This document shows positions 8,247 through 62,774 of a DNA stretch of 63,430 nt, one piece after another; the stretch's first letter is position 1, and each line of letters starts with the position of its first letter. A program made the position numbers and the translations under genes. Origin of the DNA: a virus (lineage: Duplodnaviria; Caudoviricetes); IMG/VR virus record IMGVR_UViG_3300043747_000006, positions 1-63,430 of that record; one strand, written 5' to 3'. Below the pieces are notes generated by a model. That model saw only the letters and a list, made by a program, of their open reading frames with translations, did no database searches and was not told the DNA's origin.

Positions 8247-8521
8247 CAGCGCACCACCTTCGCGTGCTCAATTGCGTCAAGGATTTCCTCGGTTCCAACA
8301 AGTCCGACTAGGCGTCCGACTTCTACTCCGTTGCGTTCAAAGACAAGGACTGGCACCGATGATAGTCCGTATTGGTCGATGACTTCCGGATGCTCGCTGA
8401 TGTCGATACTTTCAAGCGTTGCTCCTGCGGTGAATAAGTCGATGTCGCCTAGGTAATTCGCTAAAGCTGCGCATGGACGGCATCCCGGTTTACTAAATTT
8501 CTTGATCGTAATAATCGCCAT
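8246..8521 (-). CDS. Thioredoxin/glutaredoxin-like protein
   Basis: CRPC active site, SVPVLVF; lies near the RNR gene. Confidence 0.9.
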   Translation of the reverse strand: MAIITIKKFSKPGCRPCAALANYLGDIDLFTAGATLESIDISEHPEVIDQYGLSSVPVLVFERNGVEVGRLVGLVGTEEILDAIEHAKVVR

Positions 8522-8817
8522 TATTTCGCCACCCACTTTACAACTACGACTTCTTTCTTTTCTACTTCATCAAGATCACCGTCGTTAAAACTCTTCTCGA
8601 ACGAGTAATCCTCGTATCCATATCGGACCCAAAACAAGTCAATACTGAAATATCTTCCGTCTGAACTGCGCTGATAAATATGCGTAACATAACGGCCGTT
8701 GTCGTCCATGTTCTCCGGCAATTCGTCAACGTGAGTATATGTTTCTCCGTTTAATTCGAAATCAGCACCATCACGTATTTCGTCGCTTAATGTATCAAAA
8801 TCTACTCTTATTCCCAT
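8521..8817 (-). CDS. Acidic hypothetical protein
   Basis: ORF from MGIRVDF with GGGGG RBS. Confidence 0.65.
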   Translation of the reverse strand: MGIRVDFDTLSDEIRDGADFELNGETYTHVDELPENMDDNGRYVTHIYQRSSDGRYFSIDLFWVRYGYEDYSFEKSFNDGDLDEVEKKEVVVVKWVAK

Positions 8818-13744: not shown

Positions 13745-14356
13745 TTAAAGCGCAACTAAATAGTCTTGGTAATTTCCGAACTGTTTGGTACTATACTTCG
13801 CTGCCAGGCGAGTTAATGCGCGTGTTACTTTCGAATGGTGATATCCTAATTCCTTTGCGATTGCCGTCGCGGTAGGTTTCGGGTGAGCCAAGAACGTCTC
13901 AACGATCGCCGTCGTTGTTTCGTCCGCATTTTGGAGAAGAGAGCTGATCAGCGCCAACTGATCGGCTTTTTTCTTTGCGGTTATATATTCTTCGAGGTTG
14001 TATTCGTCCTTGATTTCGAATGCCACTTCGGAACCGTCGTCGTTTTCAACCGGTGTTGCATAAACCTCGAATTCGGATAATCGCTTTTTCTTACGGTAGA
14101 TGTCGTTACGTTTGAAGCGAATGCTACGATTAAGCATGTTGATGAAATCGGCTCGACCGTCGTACTTTTCGATGCAATTCAGCAAGGTATCTTCGTAAGC
14201 TGCGATTGTTTCCGCTTTGCTCGCCCGAATCGATTTGCCGACCGTTTCAAGACTTCGCCAGTTAGCGGATACCATTTCGTAGAGCTGCGTGAATGTTTCG
14301 TCACTTCGATCGTTTTGATACTTCAGCACCAGGTTATTAAGTTGTTGGTTATTCAA
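13745..14356 (-). CDS. Sigma-70-like phage transcription factor
   Basis: Region-2-like N-terminus (LVLKYQ..FTQLY..), C-terminal HTH (TATAIAKELGYHHSKVTRAL); TTG start at 14356 after AAGGAG. Confidence 0.7.
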   Translation of the reverse strand: MNNQQLNNLVLKYQNDRSDETFTQLYEMVSANWRSLETVGKSIRASKAETIAAYEDTLLNCIEKYDGRADFINMLNRSIRFKRNDIYRKKKRLSEFEVYATPVENDDGSEVAFEIKDEYNLEEYITAKKKADQLALISSLLQNADETTTAIVETFLAHPKPTATAIAKELGYHHSKVTRALTRLAAKYSTKQFGNYQDYLVAL

Positions 14357-14382
14357 TCTCAACACTCCTTTTATCGTGGCTT

Positions 14383-14418
14383 CACTATATAAAACGTATG
14401 AGTTTATAATGTCGCGCA
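14383..14418 (-). promoter_or_regulatory. Phage promoter-like motif, copy 2: TGCGCGA-N19-TTATATAGTG
   Basis: Directly upstream of the sigma-like gene RBS. Confidence 0.7.
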
Positions 14419-14509
14419 CTTTATTAAAATTATTTTTTTAAAACTTTTTGAAGTACTTGCACGTTTTGCTTGTATTAAATATAGCACGGTTATTTGGTAA
14501 ATTGTAGAA

Positions 14510-14556
14510 AGTAAACAATCTTCCAATTCTGATATTTTGTTTACTGTAGTGAACAT
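14510..14556. promoter_or_regulatory. Overlapping operator-like sites downstream of the aimP terminator
   Basis: AGTAAACAA-N18-TTGTTTACT (14510-14545) overlapping TGTTTACT-GT-AGTGAACAT (14538-14556). Confidence 0.6.
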
Positions 14557-14582
14557 AAAAAAAGACAGCCACAAGGGCTGTC
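14557..14582 (-). terminator. Intrinsic terminator after aimP
   Basis: GACAGCC-CTTGT-GGCTGTC followed by T7. Confidence 0.85.
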
Positions 14583-14601
14583 GAATAAGTTATAAGTGTA
14601 C

Positions 14602-14733
14602 TCATCCACCGACTTTATTAGCATAAGCAGTCACATTTCCCACTGCTGTATTTTTGCTATTGTCCCCTTTAAGCGCTAACGGAATCACGACGATCGCTGT
14701 AATAACTAAAACACTTAATAAAATTTTCTTCAA
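14602..14733 (-). CDS. aimP: Arbitrium pre-pro-peptide AimP (43 aa)
   Basis: TTG start; MKKILLSVLVITAIVVIPLALKGDNSKNTAVGNVTAYANKVGG; signal peptide plus C-terminal GG peptide, immediately after aimR. Confidence 0.88.
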   Translation of the reverse strand: MKKILLSVLVITAIVVIPLALKGDNSKNTAVGNVTAYANKVGG

Positions 14734-15886
14734 ACTCAACATCCCCTTTAATTTCGATTTTGTAATCGATGAATTCATTGATCATTTCTGAACTCTCACC
14801 CATTTTTTTAGCTTCCCTGGCTGCGACACTAGCGAAATAATAGTTATGTTGCTTTGCGAAACTCCTACGACATTCATGGATGTGTTTTAACGAATTTTTT
14901 GCAATGGCGTTTATTAAAGTCAAAAAATCGTCATCACCTTGCTGGAATATCGCCTCCTTTATTAATTTTAACTCGAATTCACTTCCTTTATTACTTTGTA
15001 GTCTAAGAAGTATCGGATCAGAATCAGCAGCTAGTTGATCGTTCAAATAAAGTTTAGTGAAGTCTAAGTCGCGTCTTGCGTTCGTTTCTATATCGTCATC
15101 GCCGACTAGTTTAGAGATTTCGTATCTTGTCTGAAGATGTTTTATTGTTCTTTCTTTATCTTCGGACAGATAACTCATCCCTAGTAAATAATAAGCATCA
15201 GAAACGGTTTTCGCGCAGATATTTGCATTAATAATTAAATTTGCGTAATATCTTGCTGATTCTAAGTCGTTTAAAAACAAACCTACATTACCTAAGACTT
15301 CTGCAATTCTATGTAAGTAACACTCTTTAAGGAATAAATGTCGATCACCTAAGCTATTTATACGTTCTTCTGCATCCTTTGCGGTTTCTAACATTAACCA
15401 ATACTTTTCAGCAAAGTAGTAATTATAGCATTTAATAATATCGCACAATATTGAAAGTTCACCCTTCAATTGACCAATTTTACCCAGTCTCGAAATTAAG
15501 TCTTTAGCCCCTATTTTATTTGTATAAAAATCGTACAAAATAGAATATATAGCAATGTACTTAGTTAAAGATTTATCTTCACGGTGTTTTTCAATTAAGG
15601 CATTTAAAAGAGGTTTGTTCCTGGTGATTGAGGCATATTCAAAACTTTGTTTTATCGATTCTGTTGAATTAAGGCGTAAACACCAATTTTCCATGATTTC
15701 TTTTTGATTAGAAGGGTACAGAAAATAAGAAAGTTTAAGAAGTTTACGGAAGCCCAGCCCTTTCTTGCCATGAAGATAATCAGACAATTCTTGCTTTGTG
15801 CTTTCAATAAAATCAGCAACAACAATAAGTGGTAAGTCCGTATCTTCTATTGTATTTCCGATTTCTTTATATAATTTATGCATCAA
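14669..15886 (-). CDS. aimR: Arbitrium receptor AimR (HTH plus TPR, RRNPP family)
   Basis: N-terminal HTH, IKQSFEYAS motif, TPR-like helices (AYYLLGMSYL), followed by aimP. Confidence 0.9.
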   Translation of the reverse strand: MMHKLYKEIGNTIEDTDLPLIVVADFIESTKQELSDYLHGKKGLGFRKLLKLSYFLYPSNQKEIMENWCLRLNSTESIKQSFEYASITRNKPLLNALIEKHREDKSLTKYIAIYSILYDFYTNKIGAKDLISRLGKIGQLKGELSILCDIIKCYNYYFAEKYWLMLETAKDAEERINSLGDRHLFLKECYLHRIAEVLGNVGLFLNDLESARYYANLIINANICAKTVSDAYYLLGMSYLSEDKERTIKHLQTRYEISKLVGDDDIETNARRDLDFTKLYLNDQLAADSDPILLRLQSNKGSEFELKLIKEAIFQQGDDDFLTLINAIAKNSLKHIHECRRSFAKQHNYYFASVAAREAKKMGESSEMINEFIDYKIEIKGDVEFEENFIKCFSYYSDRRDSVSA

Positions 15887-15951
15887 ATTTCCTCCTTTAA
15901 AAAGTTATGTTAATTTTTACCGTTATTTGTTATAATTACATTGTACCGAAA

Positions 15952-15971
15952 ATGTTCACTAAAGTAAACAT
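15952..15971. promoter_or_regulatory. Operator palindrome overlapping the aimR sigmaA promoter
   Basis: ATGTTCACT-AA-AGTAAACAT; overlaps minus-strand TTTACT-N17-TACAAT; divergent extended -10 TGTTATAAT at 15928-15936. Confidence 0.65.
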
Positions 15972-15985
15972 AAAAATGGAAGGAT

Positions 15986-16201
15986 GTGTATAAATTGATA
16001 GATTTTTCCCCGCTTCGTAAAACACTAGAGGAGAAAAACATGGTAATTAGTGACATGCGCGATAAAATCCTTCACCCAAAAACCATTGCAGCAATAAACA
16101 AAAACGGAGATGTCAACCTAAGCACGGTCGAAAAGATCTGCTTATTTCTTGACGTTCCAATCGAAAAAGTTGTCCGCTTTACTCCTGACGGCTCCAAATA
16201 A
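15986..16201 (+). CDS. Cro/C1-type HTH regulator (HTH_26-like), divergent from aimR
   Basis: FSPLRKTL...TIAAINKNGDVNLSTVEKICLFLDVPIEKVV; start possibly TTG at 15995. Confidence 0.85.
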   Translation: MYKLIDFSPLRKTLEEKNMVISDMRDKILHPKTIAAINKNGDVNLSTVEKICLFLDVPIEKVVRFTPDGSK

Positions 16202-16762: not shown

Positions 16763-16987
16763 CTGATTACGGTCGGAAGGTGCTTGCTACAAAATCGGCT
16801 TGACGAAGTTGGTATGACTCAAGTCCAGTTAGCGGATAAAATCCGTAAGACACCGTCTTATATATCGGATATAGCAAACGGACGCCATACCCTTTCGCTC
16901 AAAAACGCCAAGTTGATCGCCGATGCAATCGGATGCCACATCGACGACCTTTACGAATGGCATTACGCTCGTAGCAAGCGCCAGTAG
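16763..16987 (+). CDS. Xre-family HTH regulator, probable CTG start
   Basis: GAGGTG RBS 8 nt before an in-frame CTG (MITVGRCLLQNRL...MTQVQLA...IADAIGCHIDDLYEW). Confidence 0.8.
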   Translation: MITVGRCLLQNRLDEVGMTQVQLADKIRKTPSYISDIANGRHTLSLKNAKLIADAIGCHIDDLYEWHYARSKRQ

Positions 16988-17004: not shown

Positions 17005-17991
17005 TTAATCGTTACGACCGCGACCGAAACTACGTAACTTTACGTATATTTGTGGACACTGCTCCGACCTTGCAACCGACTCTCGCAATGATTCCGCTCC
17101 ATACTTCACCAACGCTTCATTCGCGTCCTTACAATCGCTTCTCACATACGCCTGCCTCACGCGCACATGCCCTTTCATCGCCATCTCGATTTCCCCTCGC
17201 AGTTTGCCGCCTGCCTTATCGTTATCCGTCGCGATTACGAGAGTCTCGATTGGCGATCGCAATATCAAATCCCGCTTCCATTTGTTGAAACTCGCGCCAC
17301 CCACTGCGATGGCTGCCACGCCTGCTGTTTGCCAGCTCAGCGTATCAATTTCGGCTTCACATATTACCGTTGTCTCCTCCGCCTGGTCAATTCCGTACAC
17401 TAGCTCGCGAATAGGTTTGCCGCCCTTTTCGTACCAAAACGTCTTGCCGTACGTCTTGCGATATTTCACATTTGCCAGCTTGCCCGCCGAAAGCCACGGT
17501 AACACAGCCGCCCGACTTTGCGCATCATAAAGCACGCCCATTTGCCGCTGGACGCGCTCGCTGATTCCGCGCTTCATTAAATACGTATAATCTTCGGTGT
17601 ATGTCGCTAAGATGTCCGTATTCAACGGTTGCCTATTCCGCTGAATACGTAGATTAATAGGTTTGAGCGTAATTGTTTCGGTTGCTTCGGTAAATCCGTA
17701 CTCTCCGAGCAAATATTCCTCCGTCTCTTCGTATGATTCATTGCGCAAAAACGATAACAGCTTGGTAAAGTTGCCGCTCGCCCATTCTGCATCGTAAGCT
17801 CCGCTATCTCCAAAACATCCGGCATACTCTCCGGTAAAATTTACGAAGAAGCTCGGCGTCTTGTCGTACCTAAACGGGCTCGCTGCGATAAGTTTTTCCG
17901 TCGACCAATTCGGCCGTGTCCATTCGAACTGCTCGAGTTCGGTGCGAATATCGATTTGGACGCTCTGGCCGCGTATTCGAATTGTTTCCAT
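17005..17991 (-). CDS. DNA primase (TOPRIM)
   Basis: SPFRYDKTPSF, ICEAEIDTLS, IATDNDKAG, KDANE. Confidence 0.9.
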   Translation of the reverse strand: METIRIRGQSVQIDIRTELEQFEWTRPNWSTEKLIAASPFRYDKTPSFFVNFTGEYAGCFGDSGAYDAEWASGNFTKLLSFLRNESYEETEEYLLGEYGFTEATETITLKPINLRIQRNRQPLNTDILATYTEDYTYLMKRGISERVQRQMGVLYDAQSRAAVLPWLSAGKLANVKYRKTYGKTFWYEKGGKPIRELVYGIDQAEETTVICEAEIDTLSWQTAGVAAIAVGGASFNKWKRDLILRSPIETLVIATDNDKAGGKLRGEIEMAMKGHVRVRQAYVRSDCKDANEALVKYGAESLRESVARSEQCPQIYVKLRSFGRGRND

Positions 17992-24842: not shown

Positions 24843-25319
24843 TCACGCGAGTAGTTTTATTCCGTTTTCTTTACCGAGCAGCTTCCCGATATTCGGATGC
24901 TTAATGGAAACTTCTTGCAATCTTTCGCATAAATTCGTCTCCTTAGCGCGAAACTTCTCGCGGTCTAATGGATCGTGAACCACGTAGATAATTTTGTCTT
25001 TGCCTCGCCCTACTGATTTATATTCCAGCGATATTAATCCGACCGCTTCGAGTATTGCGTCGATAATCGGCAAAGTCGAAAATGAAAGCTGAAACTTTTC
25101 TACGACACTGGTGCGCCCTTTCCACGAACGGCCGTAACTATCTTTTTCTGATTCGTGATTTCTAAATCGTAAAAGGTACAGATAATAAAGCGTTGCCTTG
25201 TCGCCAATGTACGGATGATACAAGTCGAAAATTTCGTGGTACATCATCGAGAAACCGCCGCGAGTATCTCCTTGACGGATAAAAACGTCTGACATTACGC
25301 TACTCCCTTCCCCATTCAT
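24843..25319 (-). CDS. Winged-HTH replication initiator-like protein
   Basis: FSMMYHEIFDLY...LYYLYLLR...LEAVGLI...IYVVHDPL. Confidence 0.6.
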   Translation of the reverse strand: MNGEGSSVMSDVFIRQGDTRGGFSMMYHEIFDLYHPYIGDKATLYYLYLLRFRNHESEKDSYGRSWKGRTSVVEKFQLSFSTLPIIDAILEAVGLISLEYKSVGRGKDKIIYVVHDPLDREKFRAKETNLCERLQEVSIKHPNIGKLLGKENGIKLLA

Positions 25320-25749
25320 TAATTAATTCACCAACTAGGTCTTCACTTATTTCCTTTAGCCTACCGTAAAATGTTTCGTAACTATCCGCCCAACTTTCGT
25401 GAATTGGGCCGTTAAACGCCGGTCTGAGATTACCAATAAACCAACGCTCTACGGAAAACAGTTTTTGTCGGGTTACGTCCCAATCAACAAAAACAACTCG
25501 AATTTTTGACACAAAACCGATAAATTTACCTGTTGCAATGTCTTTTCCTCCAAGGTGCTGCCTGATGCGATGCTTTATATTTTCACTTTTTCCTACATAA
25601 AGAAGTTTATCATCTGATGTATAAAGGAAATATATTCCTCGGCCATGACGCATATCCTTATGCGATAGCTTTTCTCCAGTAAATAAATCTGAATTATTCA
25701 GGATGTCATCTACTCCCATTTGCAACAACTGCTCATTAGTAAAAATCAA
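25300..25749 (-). CDS. GIY-YIG endonuclease
   Basis: GIYFL...LLYVGKSENIKHRIRQH...ERWFI...PAFN. Confidence 0.88.
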   Translation of the reverse strand: MIFTNEQLLQMGVDDILNNSDLFTGEKLSHKDMRHGRGIYFLYTSDDKLLYVGKSENIKHRIRQHLGGKDIATGKFIGFVSKIRVVFVDWDVTRQKLFSVERWFIGNLRPAFNGPIHESWADSYETFYGRLKEISEDLVGELINEWGRE

Positions 25750-25871: not shown

Positions 25872-26057
25872 CTAATTTTTAGTCGCGTTACTCATCCGCT
25901 TTATATAACTTTCGTTTATGATCCGCTCAAGCTCTTTCAATACCGGATTACCTTTCGCCAACTCTTCCTCAAAATGTTTCCGCCGCTCTTCCTTTGATAA
26001 CTCCATTAATGGCGAATGAATAATTCCGATTGTATTTCCGAGTCTAAATTCCTTCAC
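25872..26057 (-). CDS. Small protein divergent from integrase; candidate recombination directionality factor
   Basis: AAGGAG RBS plus GTG at 26057; the function call rests on position only. Confidence 0.55.
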   Translation of the reverse strand: MKEFRLGNTIGIIHSPLMELSKEERRKHFEEELAKGNPVLKELERIINESYIKRMSNATKN

Positions 26058-26070
26058 GATAACCACTCCT

Positions 26071-26106
26071 TACTACATAATAAGGACGAGAACACATTTT
26101 CGCGCA
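26071..26106 (-). promoter_or_regulatory. Phage promoter-like motif, copy 4: TGCGCGA-N19-TTATGTAGTA
   Basis: Upstream of the candidate RDF. Confidence 0.7.
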
Positions 26107-26118
26107 GGTCTTTTGCGG

Positions 26119-26148
26119 TTTACATTAGCGTGTATGGACGGGTATAAT
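26119..26148 (+). promoter_or_regulatory. SigmaA promoter of integrase
   Basis: TTTACA-N18-TATAAT. Confidence 0.6.
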
Positions 26149-26166
26149 ACGGTGAGAGGTGATTAA

Positions 26167-27714
26167 ATGAGTCGTCCTAGCGATCTTGATGTTTATTTAT
26201 ATTTACGTAAGAGTCGAAAAGACCTCGAAGAAGAAAAGAAAGCGAGCGAGCACGGAGAGACTTACGATACCTTGGAGCGCCACCGGCGGACCTTGCTTTC
26301 CGTCGCAAAAAAGGAGCGCCACAACATCGTCAATATATATGAAGAAGTCGTATCGGGCGAATCCGTTGCCGAGCGTCCGCGCATTCAAGAGATGCTGCGC
26401 GATATTGATGCCGGTCTTGTTGACGCTGTCCTCGTTATGGACCTCGACCGTCTTGGCCGCGGCGACATGCTCGACCAAGGTATGCTTGACCGCTCCTTTC
26501 GCTACTCTGGAACGAAAATTATCACGCCAACTGAAATATATGATCCGGAATCCGAAACGTGGGAACTGGTTTTCGGTATCAAGTCGCTAGTGGCCCGCGA
26601 AGAACTAAAGGCGATTACACGACGTATGCAACGAGGACGAGTCGCATCAGCCAGCGAAGGCAAATCGATTAGTAAGGTCCCACCGTATGGGTATAAACGT
26701 ACCGATGATTTAATATTGAAGCCGGATACTGAAACCGCATGGGTTGTTAAAAAAATGTTCGAAATGATGCGAGACGGTCATGGGCGCCAGTTCATTGCGC
26801 AAGAGTTAGACCGACTAGAAATTAAGCCGCCGAATCCAAAACGTAAAACTTGGTCGCCGAGCAGCATTACCGCAATAATTAAAAACGAAGCTTATATCGG
26901 AAATATCGTTTGGGGCCAGATAAAATATAAAAAACGGAATGGAAAGTATAAGAAGACGAAAGTTCCCCGCGAAAAGTGGACGATAAAAGAGAACGCCCAC
27001 GATCCGCTAGTATCCCGTGAATTATTCGAAGCCGCCAATAAAGCACATTCCGGACGATGGCGCCCGTCCACCGTTATTAATAAGAAGTTAGCGAATCCTC
27101 TTGCCGGCATTTTGAAGTGCGAAGTGTGCAATTATACTATGATGTACCAACCGCGCACTGACCGCCCGAATGACGTAATAAGGTGCGCTCAGCCGTCATG
27201 TAAAGGCGTGCAAAAAGGAGCCGCGCTAAATCTTGTTGAGCGAAAGGTTATTGAATTGATAGAAGAGTATGCGCTTGATATTGCCGTAACATTAACGCAG
27301 CAGGCTCCGACTTCTAACGAGGACATTCCGTATAAGAAAATACTTGTCGCAAATAAAGAGGAAGAAATGGCGCAATTGGAATCGCAGAAGAGTAACTTGC
27401 ACGATCTACTAGAGCGAGGCGTTTACGATATAGATACGTTTCTTGAACGCCAGCAAAATTTGACCGCTCGTATTGACGGACTGAAGGAGGAAGTTCGGAT
27501 ATTAAACAACGAAATCCAAAAAGACGAAGCAAGGGAAGCCGGAGCTAACGTATTGCTTCCGAGGCTTCAGATGGTTATTGCCGAATACTGGAACGCCGAT
27601 ATCGAGATGCGCAATAAGATGCTTAAGACCATTTTGGAGAAAGCAACATACCTCCGCAAAAAAGAATGGACGAAGCCGGACGAATTCGTCATACAACTTT
27701 ATCCAAAAATATAG
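26167..27714 (+). CDS. Large serine recombinase (integrase)
   Basis: YLRKS catalytic motif, DLDRLGR, PPYGY, zinc ribbon CEVC...C...C, coiled coil. Confidence 0.96.
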   Translation: MSRPSDLDVYLYLRKSRKDLEEEKKASEHGETYDTLERHRRTLLSVAKKERHNIVNIYEEVVSGESVAERPRIQEMLRDIDAGLVDAVLVMDLDRLGRGDMLDQGMLDRSFRYSGTKIITPTEIYDPESETWELVFGIKSLVAREELKAITRRMQRGRVASASEGKSISKVPPYGYKRTDDLILKPDTETAWVVKKMFEMMRDGHGRQFIAQELDRLEIKPPNPKRKTWSPSSITAIIKNEAYIGNIVWGQIKYKKRNGKYKKTKVPREKWTIKENAHDPLVSRELFEAANKAHSGRWRPSTVINKKLANPLAGILKCEVCNYTMMYQPRTDRPNDVIRCAQPSCKGVQKGAALNLVERKVIELIEEYALDIAVTLTQQAPTSNEDIPYKKILVANKEEEMAQLESQKSNLHDLLERGVYDIDTFLERQQNLTARIDGLKEEVRILNNEIQKDEAREAGANVLLPRLQMVIAEYWNADIEMRNKMLKTILEKATYLRKKEWTKPDEFVIQLYPKI

Positions 27715-27736
27715 AAGGCTAAGCGCCTTCTTTTTC
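27713..27736 (+). terminator. Integrase terminator
   Basis: AGAAGGC-TAAGC-GCCTTCT followed by a T run. Confidence 0.75.
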
Positions 27737-27865
27737 TTTGCGGAAAAACGTCATTAATGCATTGATGATATCCGCCTTTTCCTTTAATATATAGTAGCGA
27801 AACCGCTCGTTATCGATGTTTCCTAGCCCGCTAAAGAGTGTAGAGGGTCTACGGTTGTATTGATT
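27719..27865 (-). other. Start-less replacement 3' end (48 codons) of a host yhbH-like (DUF444) sporulation gene
   Basis: Translates [48 protein letters not shown], resembling the YhbH C-terminus as recalled. Confidence 0.75.
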
Positions 27866-27885
27866 TAACTGCTAACCTTATACCC
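27845..27885. other. attP site
   Basis: Imperfect inverted repeat GGGTCTACGGTT-N17-AACCTTATACCC (10/12) centred where the yhbH-like frame begins, next to the integrase. Confidence 0.75.
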
Positions 27886-30238
27886 GTAATTCTGCACTAA
27901 CTGGCGCCGGCAACCGCGTAATAAAGCGCCCATAACCGTCCTTACACTTAATTAAATTCATCGAATGGTAACGAGGCAGTCTGAGTAAATCTTCTTCAAC
28001 AAACGGATGCAATTCGCTTTTCAGTTCCTTATAATTCTCTTTGTCGCAACCGCTAATCAGCATATAGCTCGCGTTAGCCGACCGCAGTTCCTCGCGAATG
28101 TGCTTAATTTGATTTAAATAATGGCAGCTAATTATCGGCTTCATTCCGAATTTGGCCATGCGCGAAAGCCTCTGCCGCAATAATTGCTCCGTATTCTCCA
28201 CTTGGTAAAGTTCGTCGATAATAAGGTTTACTTTGCGTTGTTTATTGCGAACAGGTATTAATTCACTTCGGACCTGAAGCGCCAGGTAAATCTTCGTCAT
28301 CCAGTACGTCGTGTAAATGTCGCGCTCATTGTCCGTTGAGAACATCGTTTCGGGCATCTTTATGCAGATAAGTTGATTGCGTTGGAGCTCCTCGACCAAG
28401 TTAACGTTTTTCGACGTATCTTTCTTCAGCATCATTTCGATATACGGATTATCCTTCAGTTTATTTAAACGGCTGATAATACCTTCGACTAGGTGCAGTT
28501 TTGTGCCACGTAAATTGCCGTCCTTATCGTGCTCGTCGAGCTCTTGCATATAGCCCATGTACTCCTCCATATTTTCGTATTGATCGGCCGGCACCTTCCG
28601 CAGATAATTAATCCGTAGCATATGTTGCTGAAGGACGCCGAAAACGTCTCGGATGGGCCCGCCGCTTAAGAATACGACTAGCGCCGCGCTTGTTAAATAG
28701 CGATTCATCCGCGAAGATAATGCAGTATCATCCGAGTTAATCGAGTTGACCAATGTCGTAAGTTGTGTCGTTTGCTTTTTGGCGCTCACATAACGAGTAA
28801 AGGTATCGTCGCTTGGCGGAATCTCGTTATAGCCGAGCCCTTGTAACGTTTCGAAATCGTGGCATTCGATATTCAGCACTTGGTCAGGCGGAAACAATGC
28901 CGCCACCTCTTCGCTCAGCTCGCAGTTTTTAATGTAATCGAACATCACCACGCATTCGCCGACCTTGATAGCGTCGCGGCTTAGGTTGCCGATAAGCGTC
29001 GATTTGCCCGCCCGAGTTGGCCCGATTAATACTAGCGTCAATTGCTTGTATTCTTTATCCGTCGACAAGAACGCCGGCTGCTTGGCGCCTCTATACGTGC
29101 TCTCTCCGATACACATCGTTCCGGCCCGCAGATCCTCCGGAACTTCCGTCTCCTGCGTCTCCACCTTTTCGATAAAGTTGTAGCGTTCGAGAATGTCCCG
29201 CCCGGCAATCGCAATAAAGTTCTGCGCCTCTAAGTCGCCTATTTTATTAACTTCCGCACCAGCCACCGAATAATCCGTAAACTTGAACGGCTTCTTTAAA
29301 GGCTTCGGAGCCAGCCGATTGTCCTCCGTGACCACCTCGAAACTTTGCGTCAAGCTCCGAGCATTATTCCGCTGCCGCAGCCGGTCCTTGCTTTCGCTCA
29401 TCACGATAATTTGCGTATTGGAGATGGAGGCGGCCGCCTTTTTTCGCGTGGCATCGCTTATTTTATTGCCTCCGTTTAAGCGCTCCACAAGCGCCTCTAA
29501 GCCGTTGTATTCGTTCCCCTTCCGCTTACCTTCCGAGCCGTTAAAGGCGTCTCCTAGGTCGTCAAATAACGCCGAAATCACGCCTATAATCGTTTTAAAT
29601 GCGTAGGATGCTCCGAACTTGTTTCGGTCAGTCGGCAGGCCACGTTTAACCTTGCGAATAGTGGCTTCGTAGCTCGCTCGCCAGCTAAATTGCGAGGTCG
29701 GCATGAAGTTATAAAATACGCCAATCTTGTCGCCTTCCTCCATGACGTCAACCACGTTTAGTTTCGAGCGCAAGAGGTCATCGTTACGGCGATCAGTCGC
29801 CAGGCCTAGCGCATCCTCTTTCGTATAGGCTAACGTATACATAGTTGCTGACTCGCTGAATTCCGGAAGCGAGGCGACCTCCTTAACGGTGATATTCGTC
29901 CACGAGTCCGAAATCTTTTCCTTGATAAGCGACAGGTAATTGCGCGGGATGATGAAGTAAAACTCGACCTTTTTCTTTTCGATGTAGACGTAATAGGCGA
30001 CCTTGGAGGCGAGCTCGACGGAGTATTTAGTGCCGAAGAGGAATTCGCGCCCGAGCGCCTTTATAACTTTTGCGTTTTCCTTTCGGATGTTCTGCGTGAC
30101 GTTGCGATAAATGGAAGCGATGGATTTGGCGATTTTATGCGTGGATTGGTTGCGGATAGAGTTGTTAGGAGTTAATCGAAGGAATACATATGACGGTTTG
30201 ACAACGTTGATATAGTCGGAAAGCTTAATGCGTTTCAT
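27878..30238 (-). CDS. VirD4/TraD/HerA-FtsK-superfamily ATPase (coupling-protein-like)
   Basis: Walker A GPTRAGKST, Walker B LIIDELYQ, LSRMAKFG..PIISCHYLNQI motif. Confidence 0.75.
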   Translation of the reverse strand: MKRIKLSDYINVVKPSYVFLRLTPNNSIRNQSTHKIAKSIASIYRNVTQNIRKENAKVIKALGREFLFGTKYSVELASKVAYYVYIEKKKVEFYFIIPRNYLSLIKEKISDSWTNITVKEVASLPEFSESATMYTLAYTKEDALGLATDRRNDDLLRSKLNVVDVMEEGDKIGVFYNFMPTSQFSWRASYEATIRKVKRGLPTDRNKFGASYAFKTIIGVISALFDDLGDAFNGSEGKRKGNEYNGLEALVERLNGGNKISDATRKKAAASISNTQIIVMSESKDRLRQRNNARSLTQSFEVVTEDNRLAPKPLKKPFKFTDYSVAGAEVNKIGDLEAQNFIAIAGRDILERYNFIEKVETQETEVPEDLRAGTMCIGESTYRGAKQPAFLSTDKEYKQLTLVLIGPTRAGKSTLIGNLSRDAIKVGECVVMFDYIKNCELSEEVAALFPPDQVLNIECHDFETLQGLGYNEIPPSDDTFTRYVSAKKQTTQLTTLVNSINSDDTALSSRMNRYLTSAALVVFLSGGPIRDVFGVLQQHMLRINYLRKVPADQYENMEEYMGYMQELDEHDKDGNLRGTKLHLVEGIISRLNKLKDNPYIEMMLKKDTSKNVNLVEELQRNQLICIKMPETMFSTDNERDIYTTYWMTKIYLALQVRSELIPVRNKQRKVNLIIDELYQVENTEQLLRQRLSRMAKFGMKPIISCHYLNQIKHIREELRSANASYMLISGCDKENYKELKSELHPFVEEDLLRLPRYHSMNLIKCKDGYGRFITRLPAPVSAELRV

Positions 30239-30239
30239 C

Positions 30240-30881
30240 TTAATACACCCCGAACAAGAATTTGATTAAAATATTCGCGACGAGTAGCACGCCGGTCCAG
30301 CGACCGCCATCTTTCCATCCGGCCACCTTCAGAATTATCATGACGGCCGACCCGATTAGCGTCCCCGCGAGCAATAAGTCCTTTAATGCATCGCAGATTC
30401 CGAGCAATATTTCGAGCATCATTTCGGAAGCCTTGTCGCGTGTATTATCGGCGCTCCATTGAATAACGTGGCCCAACAGCCCGAGATTTGGGTTGTCGCC
30501 GCTAATATTCGCCAATTTATCGGCATACGGCGTCGGGTCAATCACGGAGCCGCTCGCGTCCTTCATTCCGAAATGCAGATGCGGGCCGGTGCTGTTGCCG
30601 GTGTTTCCGCTGAATCCGAGAAACTCGCCGGCGTGTATTTTGTCGCCGATGTGCGATTTGACCTCGCTCATATGGCCGTATATGGTACGTGTGCCGTCCG
30701 GCATTTGAACGCTTAATCCCTTACCTATTGCGCCGGATCCGTCATATACCCGGTCTACTACTCCGTCAACTACCGAGCGAAGTTTAGTGCCTTCGGGCAT
30801 GGCGAAATCGATGCCGGAATGTGGCTTGAAGTCGCGGACTGGCGAGAGTTCTCCGAATTTACCTGTTAAGCGAAATTTCAT
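30240..30881 (-). CDS. M23/LytM metallopeptidase with C-terminal TM helices
   Basis: HSGIDF, YGHM, GNTGNSTGPHLHF; hydrophobic C-terminus. Confidence 0.9.
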   Translation of the reverse strand: MKFRLTGKFGELSPVRDFKPHSGIDFAMPEGTKLRSVVDGVVDRVYDGSGAIGKGLSVQMPDGTRTIYGHMSEVKSHIGDKIHAGEFLGFSGNTGNSTGPHLHFGMKDASGSVIDPTPYADKLANISGDNPNLGLLGHVIQWSADNTRDKASEMMLEILLGICDALKDLLLAGTLIGSAVMIILKVAGWKDGGRWTGVLLVANILIKFLFGVY

Positions 30882-31306
30882 TACAATCCCTCCGCAGATC
30901 CTGACGTTGGTGTTGTGATTCCGTTAAACAAAGCGTCGACTTGGTCCATCGCCCATGGCAATCCGAGCAAGAAAATATAGACGATTAGATATGAAAGGAA
31001 TCCTTTTTTAGCTCCGTCAAAGTCTCCGTCTGTCATACGCTTAATCGTGTCAAATCCGCCTTTGAAAATAATTACCCATTTACCGAGACTTAGTAATTTC
31101 GCGTATAGTTTCTGAGCTCCGACGTCGATTCCGGTACTTGCGAAAGCATAATCGAGGCCACCGCCCGCTACTAAAATAACCGATGTAGCTCCGACAACTT
31201 TGTAAACTAATCCGTACTTCTTAAAATGGCGCTCAACTTTTGCGCTAAACGGCTCCTTCTCTTTTCCGTGCAAAAATTCGTTAATGGACATACTTTCCGT
31301 CCTCAT
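30881..31306 (-). CDS. VirB2/TrbC pilin-like membrane protein
   Basis: Hydrophobic segment ending AFA, then two TM helices (KWVIIFKGG; YLIVYIFLLGLPW). Confidence 0.55.
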   Translation of the reverse strand: MRTESMSINEFLHGKEKEPFSAKVERHFKKYGLVYKVVGATSVILVAGGGLDYAFASTGIDVGAQKLYAKLLSLGKWVIIFKGGFDTIKRMTDGDFDGAKKGFLSYLIVYIFLLGLPWAMDQVDALFNGITTPTSGSAEGL

Positions 31307-31424
31307 ATTGGTCAGCTCCCGTCAAACTTTATTTCGGTTAATAACCGGATGGACTTGCAATATTCCGCTGATCGGCTCATAAGCTGACGTAAAGGCGCGT
31401 CGGCTACATGGCCCATTTCCGTGC

Positions 31425-31649
31425 TTATAACTTTAGACCGCTTAATTGCGTCATGCTTAGGTTAGTAACCGCCTGAGCTGGCGCCTTTTTTATTGTTCTG
31501 ACGGCGTTTCCTCCTTCCATGTCGCGTTGGATAAGCCGTTTCATATACGCCGAGAAGTTCGGATACTGCTCGACATGCTCCTTCATCTGCTTCTGAAACG
31601 GGTCGATCACGTTAAAACTAACGGACTTATTAACGATTTTCTTCGCCAT
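31425..31649 (-). CDS. Ribbon-helix-helix regulator
   Basis: KSVSFN...NFSAYMKRLIQRDM. Confidence 0.7.
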   Translation of the reverse strand: MAKKIVNKSVSFNVIDPFQKQMKEHVEQYPNFSAYMKRLIQRDMEGGNAVRTIKKAPAQAVTNLSMTQLSGLKL

Positions 31650-31676
31650 TATTAACTACCTCCTAACTGGTTAATA

Positions 31677-31707
31677 TACTGTATGGGCGACTGGCCGTCC
31701 GTGATAC
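31677..31707 (-). promoter_or_regulatory. SigmaE/sigmaK-like sporulation promoter
   Basis: GTATC-N17-CATACAGTA upstream of the RHH gene RBS. Confidence 0.5.
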
Positions 31708-31772
31708 CAGTTTTTTGCATAAGATTAAAAAATTGATTTTTTGGACAGACTTATTGCCGAGGTGGTAGCGCA

Positions 31773-32003
31773 ATGAGTTGGTTTGGACTCGGCAAAAGAC
31801 GCAGTAAATTCGGAAGATGGATCGATAGCAAAGGAATCACGCAAGAGGAAATTCGCAAAAGAGCCGATGTAGGCAACGGAACGATGACGTCCATGTGTAA
31901 TGACGAAGATTATGTGCCGAAGATTTCGACGTGGGTAAAGGTTAAACGAGCGTTGAAGTCGATGGGTTACGACGTAGATAGCGATAAATTTTTCGATACG
32001 TAA
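31773..32003 (+). CDS. Xre-family HTH protein
   Basis: GLGKRRSKFGRWID..GITQEEI...TMTSMCND. Confidence 0.8.
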   Translation: MSWFGLGKRRSKFGRWIDSKGITQEEIRKRADVGNGTMTSMCNDEDYVPKISTWVKVKRALKSMGYDVDSDKFFDT

Positions 32004-32036
32004 ACAAAAAGAAGGCCCCGTTCGCAATGAACAGGG

Positions 32037-32462
32037 CTATATTAATGCGGATATTTCGCGATATGATTTTTCGTTGCAGCGAATATGAAGCGTAACTTCT
32101 TCGTTTGTTTTCGGATTGATAAGATAAACATAAGCCTTCGAATTATCGCGTCTGCGTCCGCCAATGGCTGCGCCGGCAATGGTTCCGAGTGGGCCTGCCG
32201 CAAGAGTTCCGATGATGGCGCCGCCTGCCGCCTTGCCTGCGCTACGAGTTGCGCCTTCTTCCCATTCGATGCCGTCGAGGCGCCATTGGTCCTTCGATAA
32301 GAACGGAATGTTAATCGTTACGACTCCGCGTGTCTCTTCCGCAATCATGATCGCCTTACGGATGCCAGCCGGCATAAGTTTCCCCGTTAAATTTAAATCG
32401 TTGCCGCCGGATAAAATATCGAGTTCAATTCGTTGCTTAAACGCATCTTTCCAAAATCCCAT
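32037..32462 (-). CDS. Glycine-zipper-containing moron protein
   Basis: AAGGAIIGTLAAGPLGTIAGAAIGG; own promoter TTTACA-N17-TAAAAT at 32494-32522. Confidence 0.75.
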   Translation of the reverse strand: MGFWKDAFKQRIELDILSGGNDLNLTGKLMPAGIRKAIMIAEETRGVVTINIPFLSKDQWRLDGIEWEEGATRSAGKAAGGAIIGTLAAGPLGTIAGAAIGGRRRDNSKAYVYLINPKTNEEVTLHIRCNEKSYREISALI

Positions 32463-32567
32463 CGTAATCTCCTCCGTACTCTTTTTATAGTAAATTTTAC
32501 CTTATACTACGTTATATGTAAAGACGGACGTAAATATTCGTCGCCCGTCGTAAATAATTTCGTTTAT

Positions 32568-32777
32568 TTATCCGTTTAATTTCGCTTTCTGCTCCGCGCC
32601 TTTTTTCCCGAAGAAGTTGTGCCTCACGAAGCCCCAAACCGCAGCCGCTCCGGTAATTACTAGCGACACAGTTACGTCATCAACATGCGGAATCTTTTCG
32701 TAACCTTTCGATGCCAAAAACGTATTAACAAAACCTAGCGCGAGCACGACTGCCCTTACAACTGTTCCTTTATCCAT
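32568..32777 (-). CDS. SPP1-family holin
   Basis: MDKGTVVRAVVL...W...HNFF.KKG..QK. Confidence 0.85.
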   Translation of the reverse strand: MDKGTVVRAVVLALGFVNTFLASKGYEKIPHVDDVTVSLVITGAAAVWGFVRHNFFGKKGAEQKAKLNG

Positions 32778-32783
32778 TTTCCG

Positions 32784-33563
32784 TCATCCTTTCTTTACTT
32801 TCACATATTTCGCGCTGCCCGTAATATATAGGCCGCTCTTTAACTTATACATTTTTGCGCCTGCAACCGTTAGCTCGCGTTGAATCGTAAACACATCGCC
32901 TTTATTAACGATTGGACCGGTCTTGTCGTTCCAATTCGGCGACGGGTACGTATGCAAGGAATCGACTAGCACCTCGAGTAGTTGGCGATCTACCGCCTCT
33001 TTTACCGCAGGCTTCGGAGGATTAACGACGGCATCAACACGCTTCTTAAAGTCCTCAAATTTAGATGGGTCGCTCACCCAAGGCGCCGGGCAGTTTTTGC
33101 CGGTAATATCGTGATGGCGATAGATGTCCGCTTTCGGGTCGAGCTTGAATTGCTTGCATAAGTCCGCCACCACTTGGACGGTTCTATCGATTGTTTCCGC
33201 GTGAATTGTTGAGTCCTGTTCTACGCACATCTCAACGCCGATGCTCGTTAGGTTTGCGCCTCCGTTAGTATAATACCAAGTAGATGCCGCGAGCTTTGCG
33301 ATTCTGCACGGATGCTCATTCGCGTGATAGGCGACCTCATTTAGCGGAATGTCTAATGTCGCAGAATCGCGATCAACGAATAGGTGCGCTGATGCATAGC
33401 GACTGCCGCCTCCGTCTGCTCCGTCGAAAAATTGAACTTCCCTATCGTCTGATGCTCCCGGTGTTGCTGTCCAATGCATTACGATTCCTTTGACTCCGAT
33501 TAACTTACTCCCTGGGCGTGAAAACTGGTTAACTTGCAGATAATTCGTTTTCCAAGTCGCCAT
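32784..33563 (-). CDS. Endolysin, N-acetylmuramoyl-L-alanine amidase (Amidase_2)
   Basis: IVMHWT, SAHLFVD, AYHA, SIGVEMC, HHDITGKNCP. Confidence 0.93.
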   Translation of the reverse strand: MATWKTNYLQVNQFSRPGSKLIGVKGIVMHWTATPGASDDREVQFFDGADGGGSRYASAHLFVDRDSATLDIPLNEVAYHANEHPCRIAKLAASTWYYTNGGANLTSIGVEMCVEQDSTIHAETIDRTVQVVADLCKQFKLDPKADIYRHHDITGKNCPAPWVSDPSKFEDFKKRVDAVVNPPKPAVKEAVDRQLLEVLVDSLHTYPSPNWNDKTGPIVNKGDVFTIQRELTVAGAKMYKLKSGLYITGSAKYVKVKKG

Positions 33564-61948: not shown

Positions 61949-62388
61949 GACTCCTTGTATACTGGAATTAGAACTTTGTATTCCGTGTAGTTTTTAACGC
62001 CGATCTCATTGCTAATTACGATACTCTTAGTCTCATAACCTCCGAAGTCTCTAACTTTATAGATTCGTTTTCCGTTTACTTGTTCGTCCAGCATCACTAA
62101 GTCGCCTACAGTAGCTTCCATTCGCGCCATTTTATATCGTTTACCTTGGTAAAAAACGGTTTCTTCAATAACAAACTCACGTGTGCTGCTTCCGTCGCAA
62201 TTCGATATAACTTCGCCACCAATTTCGTAGTACTTACACGTATTACATGAATAAGCGTCTTTAAAGTCGTTTACAAGCAATCCACCGCATTTACATACGA
62301 TTCTGCCCTTATTGAATAACTCATCGATTATATCAGCAAAGACGTTAGGCGGTATTTCTCCGCCCTTGGTCTTGTTATATTCCGTCAT
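61942..62388 (-). CDS. Hypothetical zinc-ribbon protein
   Basis: CKCGG...CNTC. Confidence 0.65.
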   Translation of the reverse strand: MTEYNKTKGGEIPPNVFADIIDELFNKGRIVCKCGGLLVNDFKDAYSCNTCKYYEIGGEVISNCDGSSTREFVIEETVFYQGKRYKMARMEATVGDLVMLDEQVNGKRIYKVRDFGGYETKSIVISNEIGVKNYTEYKVLIPVYKESC

Positions 62389-62774
62389 TATTTCTCTCCC
62401 CCTATCCGGTATCCTTCATCATTCCGCGACCAGAACCAATAAACTTCCGAAATTGCCCCGATCGCATTGTCAACGTGGTAGCTGACGACGTCCTGGCCGA
62501 TGCCCATCAACTTGCCCGCCTCTTCCTGCGTCAGGTCCTCTTCGTATACCAATCGGAGAGCTTCCGCCTGGCGTTCGGTTAGGTTGGCGAGCTCGAGCGC
62601 TTTGTATAAATCGATTAAAATTACCGTACTATCGTAATCTCCGGCATACTGTCGAGAGAGCAGCGCGTGATAATCGGATAATAAAATGCGTAGGTTTGCC
62701 GGACAATCCAACGCCGGGTACTTTTCTTCGAGACTGCGCTCGTTTACGTGTAGATCACGTTTTACACTTCCGAT
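62388..62774 (-). CDS. Sigma70 region-4 HTH protein, probable ATC start
   Basis: LTERQAEALRLVYEEDLTQEEAGKLMGI; AGGAGG 8 nt upstream of an in-frame ATC at 62774. Confidence 0.8.
   Translation of the reverse strand: MGSVKRDLHVNERSLEEKYPALDCPANLRILLSDYHALLSRQYAGDYDSTVILIDLYKALELANLTERQAEALRLVYEEDLTQEEAGKLMGIGQDVVSYHVDNAIGAISEVYWFWSRNDEGYRIGGEK

Follow-up and report, generated by a model that had tools for sequence, protein, structure and literature searches.

We analysed the phage genome held as IMG/VR record IMGVR_UViG_3300043747_000006, a whole virus record of 63,430 bases with an estimated completeness of 100%, which at its full length is referred to here as the window. Nearly all of its genes lie on the minus strand. 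The genome specifies a contractile-tail structure, a lysis cassette (XhlA, amidase and SPP1-type holin), an AimR-type regulator, a family-A DNA polymerase and a large serine recombinase, and the phage is a complete temperate myophage. At the end proximal to its attachment site (attP) it carries an accessory operon, which is the subject of this report. As a preliminary description drawn from the letters had stated, four co-oriented open reading frames (ORFs) are present here; they lie on the minus strand, at 27878-31649.

The first gene in order (31425-31649) encodes a 74-aa protein that matches a PHROG of unknown function (phrog_8966, E 2.6e-13). After a conserved intergenic leader (31307-31424) follows the gene for a 141-aa membrane protein (30881-31306), whose N-terminus resembles a leader and is followed by an AFA/STG junction and two hydrophobic helices. 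The third gene (30240-30881) encodes a 213-aa protein in which an M23 peptidase domain (residues 20-116) precedes a tail with two transmembrane (2-TM) helices (residues ~135-213). The last gene (27878-30238) encodes a 786-aa VirB4-like ATPase with an N-domain (residues 1-~360) and a RecA-type C-domain (~365-784).

The fold of the ATPase was predicted with AlphaFold2 from 64 diverse relatives (pLDDT, the predicted local distance difference test, 88.6). The top ten Foldseek matches were all chains of R388 type IV secretion system (T4SS) entries, and the titles that name the chain give TrwK/VirB4. The TrwK/VirB4 alignment spans the whole length of the ATPase (best E 1.6e-14), in contrast to that of TrwB/VirD4, which covers the C-terminal half only (3e-10). 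Compared by VIA-align, the C-domain is nearly equidistant from VirB4 (4ag6; Z 27.0, root-mean-square deviation (rmsd) 3.5, 335 residues aligned), TrwB (Z 26.4, rmsd 4.4, 365 aligned), the C-domain of DndH (Z 25.9) and HerA (Z 24.7), with the FtsK motor further off (Z 17.4, 216 aligned). It combines a nucleotide-binding domain with an all-alpha domain, as expected of VirD4/TraG. Given these ties, the C-domain is diagnostic of the superfamily only. Residues 1-360 form an alpha/beta domain of VirB4 type, and this N-domain, folded alone (pLDDT 71) and compared with 48,161 representative chains, placed TrwK/VirB4 first (7o42_A; Z 13.0, rmsd 3.9, 235 aligned), ahead of a runner-up at Z 9.3 and of all other chains at 6.7 or less. 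The ATPase is therefore better read as VirB4-like than as a coupling protein.

Sequence comparison alone gives little of this. Identity to the aligned structure chains is 8-13%, PDB sequence searches returned P-loop matches only, the sole Pfam match was TrwB_AAD_bind at 20.4 bits (cut-off 20.5), and NCBIfam gave only sub-threshold TraD matches. The protein matches PHROG 5156, of unknown function, from end to end (E 4.9e-90) and belongs with SPO1 gp27.4 to one family (tblastn E 6e-17; E 7.7e-23 in a separate search). Walker A residues G411/K412 and Walker B residues D675/E676 are invariant in the 64 relatives. A crude hydropathy scan for proteins with at least two hydrophobic segments did not flag the ATPase, and thus gave no sign of an N-terminal transmembrane anchor of VirD4/TraG type. 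The preliminary description had reported coupling-protein motifs in the ATPase and no recognisable VirB4 in the window. The motif strings do stand in the translation; the coupling-protein identity gives way to the VirB4 match of the N-domain, and the missing VirB4 is the ATPase itself. The 'FtsK/SpoIIIE' genes of gamma, Fah and Wbeta, with their delayed-early timing, were dropped as evidence on this family, as none is among the 60 of 69 tblastn records listed.

We then compared 97 loci, comprising 18 from bacterial genomes, 78 from viral contigs and the window, some of which duplicate one prophage, using profile searches that reached 5-6 kb from the ATPase gene in each direction. The pilin-like gene (for the 141-aa protein) is present in all 90 loci that hold upstream DNA, the other seven sequences being cut off upstream, and it is also paired with the ATPase in Clostridium phage phiCp-D. 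The 2-TM tail occurs in 88 of the 97 sequences and the M23 domain in 62. In four of 16 aligned loci (L015, L016, L018 and L021) the tail stands alone before the ATPase, and in nine loci M23 is a separate gene after it. The near-constancy of the pilin-like, 2-TM and ATPase parts, set against the patchier M23 domain, indicates a three-gene core with the peptidase as an optional add-on. The core genes run in the order pilin-like, 2-TM, ATPase, as in virB2-virB3-virB4, and we consider it very probable that the machine derives from a T4SS.

The two small membrane components are assigned by architecture and position. In an alignment of 18 relatives, the 141-aa protein has a long putative leader, an AxA-type junction and two hydrophobic helices with a charged loop between them, which suggests a VirB2/TrbC-like protein. 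None of the 18 matched TrbC, T4SS_pilin or related models (E≤1), a PDB sequence search with the family gave no match, and the 120 listed of its 239 homologues carry neither a Pfam domain nor a pilin or T4SS name. Language-model scores in the Atlas search were 0.88 for TrbC and 0.86 for T4SS_pilin, both leads under a bar of 0.9. The VirB2/TrbC label proposed earlier is thus an architectural one, without family-model backing. The 2-TM tail has the size and the place, directly before the VirB4-like gene, of virB3; an Atlas search with it returned nothing nameable, and no family or fold match was found.

The M23 assignment is secure (Pfam E 2e-24, scoring 86 bits where the cut-off is 28.7), and two hydrophobic segments lie at the C-terminus of the protein, in agreement with the preliminary description of a peptidase with C-terminal transmembrane helices. 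The metal-binding motifs of M23 are HxxxD and HxH; here they read HSGID and HLH, look intact and are shared by the 12 rows of our alignment (A5) that bear M23. Free-standing M23 genes of relatives carry an N-terminal anchor. The proposed link with SpoIIQ is weak, as its equivalog model scored 33.1 bits against a cut-off of 250 and ranked ninth behind MepM, ShyA, DipM and others. The operon could also be a wall-remodelling or release aid and not a translocon: late in the mother cell, the ATPase complex in the membrane would deliver or activate the peptidase, which would help lysis or the release of phage or spores. Its apparently intact motifs, the adjoining holin, amidase and XhlA lysis genes, and the fact that sigmaK drives mother-cell autolysins in Bacillus subtilis would all suit such a role. 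We regard it as very unlikely, however, because M23 is the dispensable part of a module whose ATPase, pilin-like protein and 2-TM tail are nearly constant, and because lysis needs no VirB4-type ATPase.

An operon of this family has been discussed before. In the part of Pathria et al. (2012; PMC3357382) that we draw on, a phage 'DNA translocation operon' is proposed for 0305phi8-36 and, around gp27.4, for SPO1, the family is linked to a relaxase and an actin-like protein, and the ATPase is read as a VirD4/TraG-like coupling protein. Given this homology, the earlier description of the operon as an undescribed system was overstated. The window shares with the 0305phi8-36 and SPO1 operon an ATPase of the gp27.4 family that lacks an N-terminal transmembrane domain, and an accessory, non-essential character; many of its relatives also share with SPO1 an upstream actin-like gene (gp27.9 type, ALP_N). 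It differs in lacking a Replic_Relax relaxase and a VirB6-like gene, in the M23 fusion and the VirB4 fold, and in belonging to a temperate phage in which the operon abuts attP and carries a sigmaK/E-type promoter motif. In the literature outside subscription journals, we found no report of the temperate, relaxase-free, attP-adjacent clade, of the VirB4 fold assignment, of the constant three-gene core, of a cytoskeletal-gene link at this scale, or of the sporulation-type promoter and restriction to endospore-formers. A megablast search of 26000-33000 against phages gave no match.

The absence of a relaxase and of VirB6 from the window, also part of the preliminary description, was borne out. 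None of 84 scanned window ORFs matched relaxase, VirB6, VirB8 or coupling-protein families, and only the tape-measure protein among window ORFs has more than two hydrophobic segments, leaving no polytopic VirB6-like protein. SPO1 gp27.3 matches Replic_Relax (E 2.9e-12); no homologue of it was found in the window (E≤1) or, within 5-6 kb of the ATPase gene, in the 97 sequences, and a PF13814 search of the window gave no match. These results bear on a sporulation-independent, conjugation-like spread of the sort proposed for the 0305phi8-36/SPO1 operon, in which phage DNA would reach an adjacent cell through a mating channel or pilus, with no virion involved. The VirB4 fold and the homology to SPO1 gp27.4 speak for it, as do the reported tie of the family to a relaxase and actin-like protein and the Replic_Relax match of gp27.3. 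A pilin-like protein with a wall hydrolase is, moreover, typical of Gram-positive T4SSs. The missing relaxase, coupling protein, VirB6 and VirB8 nevertheless make it an unlikely account, and it would leave both the promoter motif and the restriction to endospore-formers unexplained.

The operon ends within attP. This site is a 48-bp imperfect palindrome at 27885-27838 (left arm 27885-27869, core 27868-27855, right arm 27854-27838), and its left arm takes in the ATPase stop codon TAA (27880-27878). Phage-form relatives with a close integrase (L028-L031, L034) have the core flanked by both arms, while in lysogens L005, L006 and L007 only the left arm and core remain beside the ATPase; from this comparison the claim that the stop codon lies in an attP arm holds. 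The closest relative of the ATPase, with 93% identity, is in a cultured lysogen, a Neobacillus niacini genome from which locus L005 comes. Mapping attP through this lysogen was abandoned, as DNA similarity ends at 27894 towards the ATPase and, on the other side, within the integrase gene at 27461, and relatives with a closer integrase were used instead. The integrase, a large serine recombinase (26167-27714, plus strand; Pfam Resolvase E 6.7e-20, Recombinase E 1.6e-24; phrog_95 E 2.3e-102), is convergent with the operon. In lysogens the ATPase is the last phage gene and the operon the last gene set before attR, with host genes (PTS (phosphotransferase system), histidine kinase, riboflavin genes, a ComK fragment, DNA ligase) within a few hundred bases.

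This position, after the lysis cassette at the prophage end and with its own regulator, is by our general understanding the usual place of lysogenic-conversion genes, and it would suit a prophage 'moron' for superinfection exclusion or defence. The ATPase, as a membrane-anchored protein of HerA/VirB4 type, and its wall-modifying partners would then block DNA entry or abort infection, and the likeness of the promoter to a sporulation type would be incidental. The closeness of the C-domain to DndH-C and HerA, equal to that to TrwB, and a PADLOC mad8 match (E 3.9e-8) could be cited in favour. The mad8 match, however, is to the P-loop domain only, and the other five proteins scanned gave no PADLOC match. 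The N-domain is specifically that of VirB4, linkage to actin- or tubulin-like genes is atypical of defence systems, the family also occurs in virulent phages, and the enrichment of the promoter motif described below would go unexplained. We therefore think a defence function improbable.

Upstream of the first gene, the promoter string quoted in the preliminary description is present. A -35-like element, GGTATCA (31708-31702), is followed after 16 nt by the -10-like element CATACAGTA (31685-31677), a AACCAGTTAGG box (31662-31672), a ribosome-binding site and ATG, with 27 nt from the string to the first ATG. The -10 element is a perfect match to CATAnnnTA, the standard -10 consensus of the mother-cell sigma factors sigmaE and sigmaK. 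The -35 is either TATCA with a 16-nt gap or its own AC with 15 nt. The exact block is confined to the closest relatives, for example four of 17 sequences compared, and is conserved in the window, L005, L006, L007, L027, L028 and L058. Across the wider family a pattern recurs of GGAAAC or GGTAAC, 15-16 nt and CATAnnnTA, placed 0-117 nt (mostly 27-92) before the operon's first gene, which encodes either a 74-aa homologue or an actin-like protein, in flanks that cannot otherwise be aligned. According to the parts of two studies that we use, sigmaE and sigmaK promoters share their -10 and have a gap of 14-16 nt, position 4 of the -35 being C for sigmaK and T for sigmaE (PMC517825), and the -35 being ATA for sigmaE and AC for sigmaK (PMC3789822). 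The C of the relatives' GGAAAC/GGTAAC aligns with the sigmaK-type position. The pattern thus appears to fit sigmaK best, with sigmaE possible, and the window promoter, having T in place of A in the -35 or else AC at 15 nt, is an imperfect member.

We evaluated the recurrence of the motif in 69 distinct 150-nt windows before the first operon gene, with 1000 shuffles and 792 windows before other ORFs of the same loci as controls. CATAnnnTA occurs in 24 of the 69, compared with 4 on the reverse strand, a mean of 5.4 (maximum 14) in shuffles and 36/792 in controls. The longer pattern AC-N15-17-CATAnnnTA was counted in 16 of these windows, compared with 2 on the reverse strand, a shuffle mean of 0.9 (maximum 6) and 4/792 in controls, and is hence about 46 times commoner before the operon than before other genes, although the 16 windows represent about seven lineages and are not 16 independent events. 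Among 19 AC-N15-17-CATA sites, position 8 is T in 18 and position 9 is A in 16. The sporulation-type promoter is therefore no one-off. The whole window has only three AC-N15-17-CATAnnnTA sites on both strands, the operon's own included, and within 31650-31780 the operon strand gave no site of sigma-70 type. An extracytoplasmic function (ECF) sigma reading (AAC ... CGT) was rejected, since it fits only two of the 69 windows and the -10 is always CATA in the counted sites.

An ordinary or phage-specific promoter, active in lytic growth or in the lysogen, could also account for this region; CATAnnnTA and AC would then mark a site for another sigma factor, such as a phage-encoded one, or for a regulator, and the sporulation link would reflect host range only. 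In several relatives, TATATGAT-like sequences occupy the equivalent place, a conserved CA(A/G)GC element in the spacer hints at an additional factor, and the restriction to certain hosts may be phylogenetic. The phage also encodes a small sigma-70 region-4 protein. Against this, groups whose sequences cannot otherwise be aligned agree with the sigmaE/K type in all six specified positions of the -10, the spacing of the AC is as expected, and the motif is strongly enriched over the controls. We consider an explanation of this kind possible but somewhat doubtful. Sporulation-timed expression of the operon, as judged from these motifs, is plausible, and we rate control by sporulation at even odds or marginally better.

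Some further features of the promoter region and its possible factors may be recorded here. The region-4 protein of the window (62388-62711, minus strand; Pfam E 1.5e-9) has a counterpart in L013 (10261-10632, E 2.2e-17), directly after the integrase, and such region-4-only proteins are possibly phage transcription factors that could bear on promoter use. Promoter spacers, for example those of the window (31701-31686) and of L006, L028, L043, L044, L045, L058 and L091, keep CA(A/G)GC or GGACA(A/G)-like sequences some 11-20 nt before CATA. We take GGACAAG-like sequences to be SpoIIID sites, a lead that would fit some loci only, as most have CA(A/G)GC. The only other AC-N15-17-CATAnnnTA site on the coding strand of the window (18142-18111, minus strand) lies about 120 nt before a Toprim/primase-like gene (17005-17991).

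The distribution of the family was surveyed in two ways. All 69 phage records with an ATPase homologue in tblastn are assigned by name to seven genera: Bacillus 58, Geobacillus 3, Lysinibacillus 2, and Brevibacillus, Alicyclobacillus, Clostridium and Terrisporobacter one each, with two 'Deep-sea thermophilic phage' records that name no host and that we presume to belong to Geobacillus. All seven genera are endospore-forming, and phages of Firmicutes that do not sporulate are numerous in the phage collection. In 401 genomes from the class of the L005 host, the ATPase was found in 25 (E≤1e-10); SpoIVA was present in all 25, compared with 272 of the 401 overall, and none of the 129 SpoIVA-negative genomes matched (Fisher p = 4.2e-5; with only the 18 strong matches counted, 7.7e-4). 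The survey of co-occurrence thus places the ATPase only in phages of endospore-forming genera and in SpoIVA-bearing genomes; as phage gene pools follow host phylogeny, the association is suggestive rather than proof. Sequencing runs listed as sharing words with the phage sequence are three soil-metagenome DNA runs, one of which contains 0.96 of the words, and no RNA run is among those listed. The phage seems to have spore-forming soil bacilli as hosts, and the likeness of the operon's promoter to promoters active in sporulating cells alone hints at exploitation of spore formation.

In relatives, the module is joined to genes of another kind. An actin-like (Pfam ALP_N, E down to 1e-26) or tubulin/TubZ-like gene lies directly upstream in 30 of the 97 sequences. 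The tubulin-like (TubZ/FtsZ-like) type is found in L015, L016, L054, L065, L068 and L096-L098, and the actin-like (Alp/ParM-like) type in L018, L020, L022, L039-L044, L048, L049, L057, L060, L075, L077, L078, L085, L087 and L090-L094. Homologues of the 74-aa protein, sought with three query types, occur in 47 of the 97, usually next after the actin-like gene, which is the position of ParR. Together, the cytoskeletal gene and the 74-aa homologue form what amounts to a module of segregation type, attached to the VirB4-like one.

The 74-aa protein has a strand-helix-helix pattern that, with its ParR-like position, suggests a ribbon-helix-helix (RHH) protein. None of 25 relatives matched RHH, CopG, Arc or ParG models (Pfam, E≤0.1) and a PDB sequence search with the protein gave no match, so the RHH label of the preliminary description lacks family-model support. 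The AACCAGTTAGG box that follows the -10 element ahead of the ribosome-binding site, of which relatives have one to three, is a likely candidate operator for this small DNA-binding-like protein, which probably controls the operon through the repeated ACCAGTTA boxes as putative operators. A divergent gene (31773-32003, plus strand; phrog_3, E 2.6e-4), with homologues in 38 of the 97 sequences, encodes a 76-aa helix-turn-helix (HTH) protein that is probably a local repressor.

The gene set, the folds, the place of attP, the recurrent promoter motif and the host association are thus established by observation. They allow us to propose how the operon might work, in a scheme in which the sigma factor, timing, assembly, cargo and direction of transport are what we infer. 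Mother-cell RNA polymerase with sigmaK, or perhaps sigmaE, would read the operon promoter in a sporulating lysogen or infected cell, and the 74-aa and HTH proteins would repress it at other times. The pilin-like and 2-TM proteins would insert into the membrane, and the M23 peptidase would open the wall locally by cutting cross-links. A hexamer of the VirB4-like ATPase would dock on the membrane proteins and power either assembly of a conduit or transport across the membrane. The cargo would most plausibly be phage DNA, moved for example towards the forespore or away from the mother cell, which is doomed, and in relatives actin- or tubulin-like filaments may bring it to the site. We assign a probability of about 0.4 to the combined reading, that of a T4SS-derived machine under sporulation control which moves a macromolecule. 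Its more specific form, in which phage DNA is loaded into the forespore or exported from the mother cell, we think rather unlikely; that transfer runs between mother cell and forespore we purely infer.

Several points weigh against the combined reading. The -10 motif is missing from 45 of the 69 relatives' windows and the window's own -35 is TATCA, compared with AAACA or TAACA in relatives; the sigma factor is assigned from sequence alone. In SPO1, no AC-N-CATAnnnTA site was found in the 2.5 kb examined, and among the carriers of the ATPase family are virulent phages, which have transcription programmes of their own. A sigma-70-type site, TTAACT-17-TATACT (31652-31680, plus strand), points toward the HTH gene and overlaps the conserved promoter block, and could explain some of the conservation that this block shows among the closest relatives. 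The host association is not independent of phylogeny. With respect to the machine, no Pfam or NCBIfam VirB4 model matched the ATPase, which thus belongs to a divergent clade; a VirB6-like channel, VirB8, a coupling protein and a relaxase are all absent from the window; and we know of no case in which VirB4 alone acts as a DNA pump. The M23 domain of the window has no signal peptide. Finally, deletion of the related operon of 0305phi8-36 is recorded, in the consulted part of the source, as giving no laboratory phenotype (PMC3357382).

The entry of phage genomes into spores and their survival there is a long-standing question, and the known cases borrow host segregation proteins. If the combined reading were true, the operon would be a dedicated phage-encoded, sporulation-timed and T4SS-derived mechanism for placing phage genomes in spores. 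It would also be the smallest VirB4-based apparatus linked to a virus so far, and would bear on how conjugation machinery is reduced and reused. It is conceivable, if improbable as it stands, that phages of endospore-forming Firmicutes own a private minimal VirB4-type translocon with host mother-cell sigma factors as its switch, sending their genomes to the forespore or out of the mother cell. In relatives the translocon would team with filaments of actin- or tubulin-like type and with a protein of centromere-binding kind, and the outcome would be persistence in spores ('virospores') by a route that needs no virion. In place of a 'coupling ATPase' or hypothetical-protein annotation, the locus offers a testable model, with a defined promoter, partners, attP and a close cultured Neobacillus niacini lysogen. 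Should the promoter reading fail, the operon would still be an accessory system conserved and widespread in Bacillus-type phages, its function a puzzle since 2012.

Comparison with known systems also places the operon close to the VirB2-VirB3-VirB4 core of T4SSs (R388 TrwL/TrwM/TrwK; Thermoanaerobacter VirB4), with which it shares a two-domain ATPase, the gene order and a wall hydrolase in the operon. Unlike that core it stands without VirB6, VirB8, VirB10, VirB11 and VirD4, and its pilin and VirB3 assignments are made without model support. HerA, DndH (DptH) and FtsK/SpoIIIE are of the same RecA-type ATPase superfamily, but the N-domain here matches VirB4 and not the HAS barrel of HerA or the linker of FtsK. 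Archaeal Ced DNA import presumably offers a further lead, likened here by description only: a relaxase-free VirB4/HerA-like ATPase moves DNA with small pilin-like membrane proteins, and Ced has a polytopic CedA channel.

Two sporulation-related systems also invite comparison. The SpoIIIA-SpoIIQ channel is secretion-system-like, is made in the sporangium and has an M23-fold partner, a parallel in timing and place only. In contrast to it, the M23 protein here lies far under the cut-off of the SpoIIQ model, and the ATPase is VirB4-like and not SpoIIIAA-like; B. subtilis SpoIIQ lacks the M23 motifs that are present here. A precedent for control is sprB of SPbeta, which in the consulted part of Abe et al. 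(2014; PMC4191935) has a sigmaE/sigmaK promoter with a perfect -10 and an imperfect -35, measured mother-cell expression and a recombination directionality factor as its product. The gene sprB belongs to a temperate Bacillus phage and, like the operon, lies beside a serine integrase system and has a sporulation-type promoter. The operon differs in specifying a membrane machine and in that its promoter is predicted from the letters.

The leader between the first two genes contains an ATGG-C-A-GTAGCCG-like element, followed by a small hairpin, that turns up immediately ahead of the pilin-like gene in sources as far apart as Paenibacillus prophages and a Clostridium phage (window 31307-31424; L050, L015, L016, L054, L061, L064, L066 and L071; L001, which is phiCp-D, at ~3995-4020). 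A role as leader or as internal promoter is conceivable. The predicted RNA fold of the 118 nt was not better than that of shuffles (z = -0.41), and Rfam gave no match at E≤1 over 27600-32600.

At the other end of the operon, a bidirectional terminator-like hairpin (27713-27731) lies on the integrase side of attP and is the only one of its kind after the operon. Being beyond the crossover, it would be lost to the operon in a lysogen, and transcription would then enter host DNA unless another stop intervenes. In L011, a 139-aa ORF directly after the ATPase (8350-8769) matches the C-terminal part of ComK only (positions 56-152 of 152, E 3.4e-37), and this prophage seems to have inserted in comK.

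Elsewhere in the window, a gene between the holin and the module (32037-32462, minus strand) encodes a different 141-aa protein, with a glycine-zipper-like stretch and a match to PHROG 37056 of unknown function (E 1.6e-15). It has its own terminator downstream and, among genome loci, is conserved only in the closest relative, L005. ORFs like HNH and GIY-YIG endonucleases (1035-1628 and 25300-25749, both minus strand) occur among the early genes and are possibly homing endonucleases. The AimR-type regulator (14669-15886, minus strand; Pfam AimR E 2.9e-29) has HTH genes nearby (15986-16201 and 16784-16987, both plus strand), and a neighbouring ORF (14404-14574) does not resemble an arbitrium-peptide gene. 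The regulator gene sits in the stretch of lowest GC content in the window (0.345 at 14001-16000), and the phage probably uses a lysis-lysogeny signal of arbitrium type.

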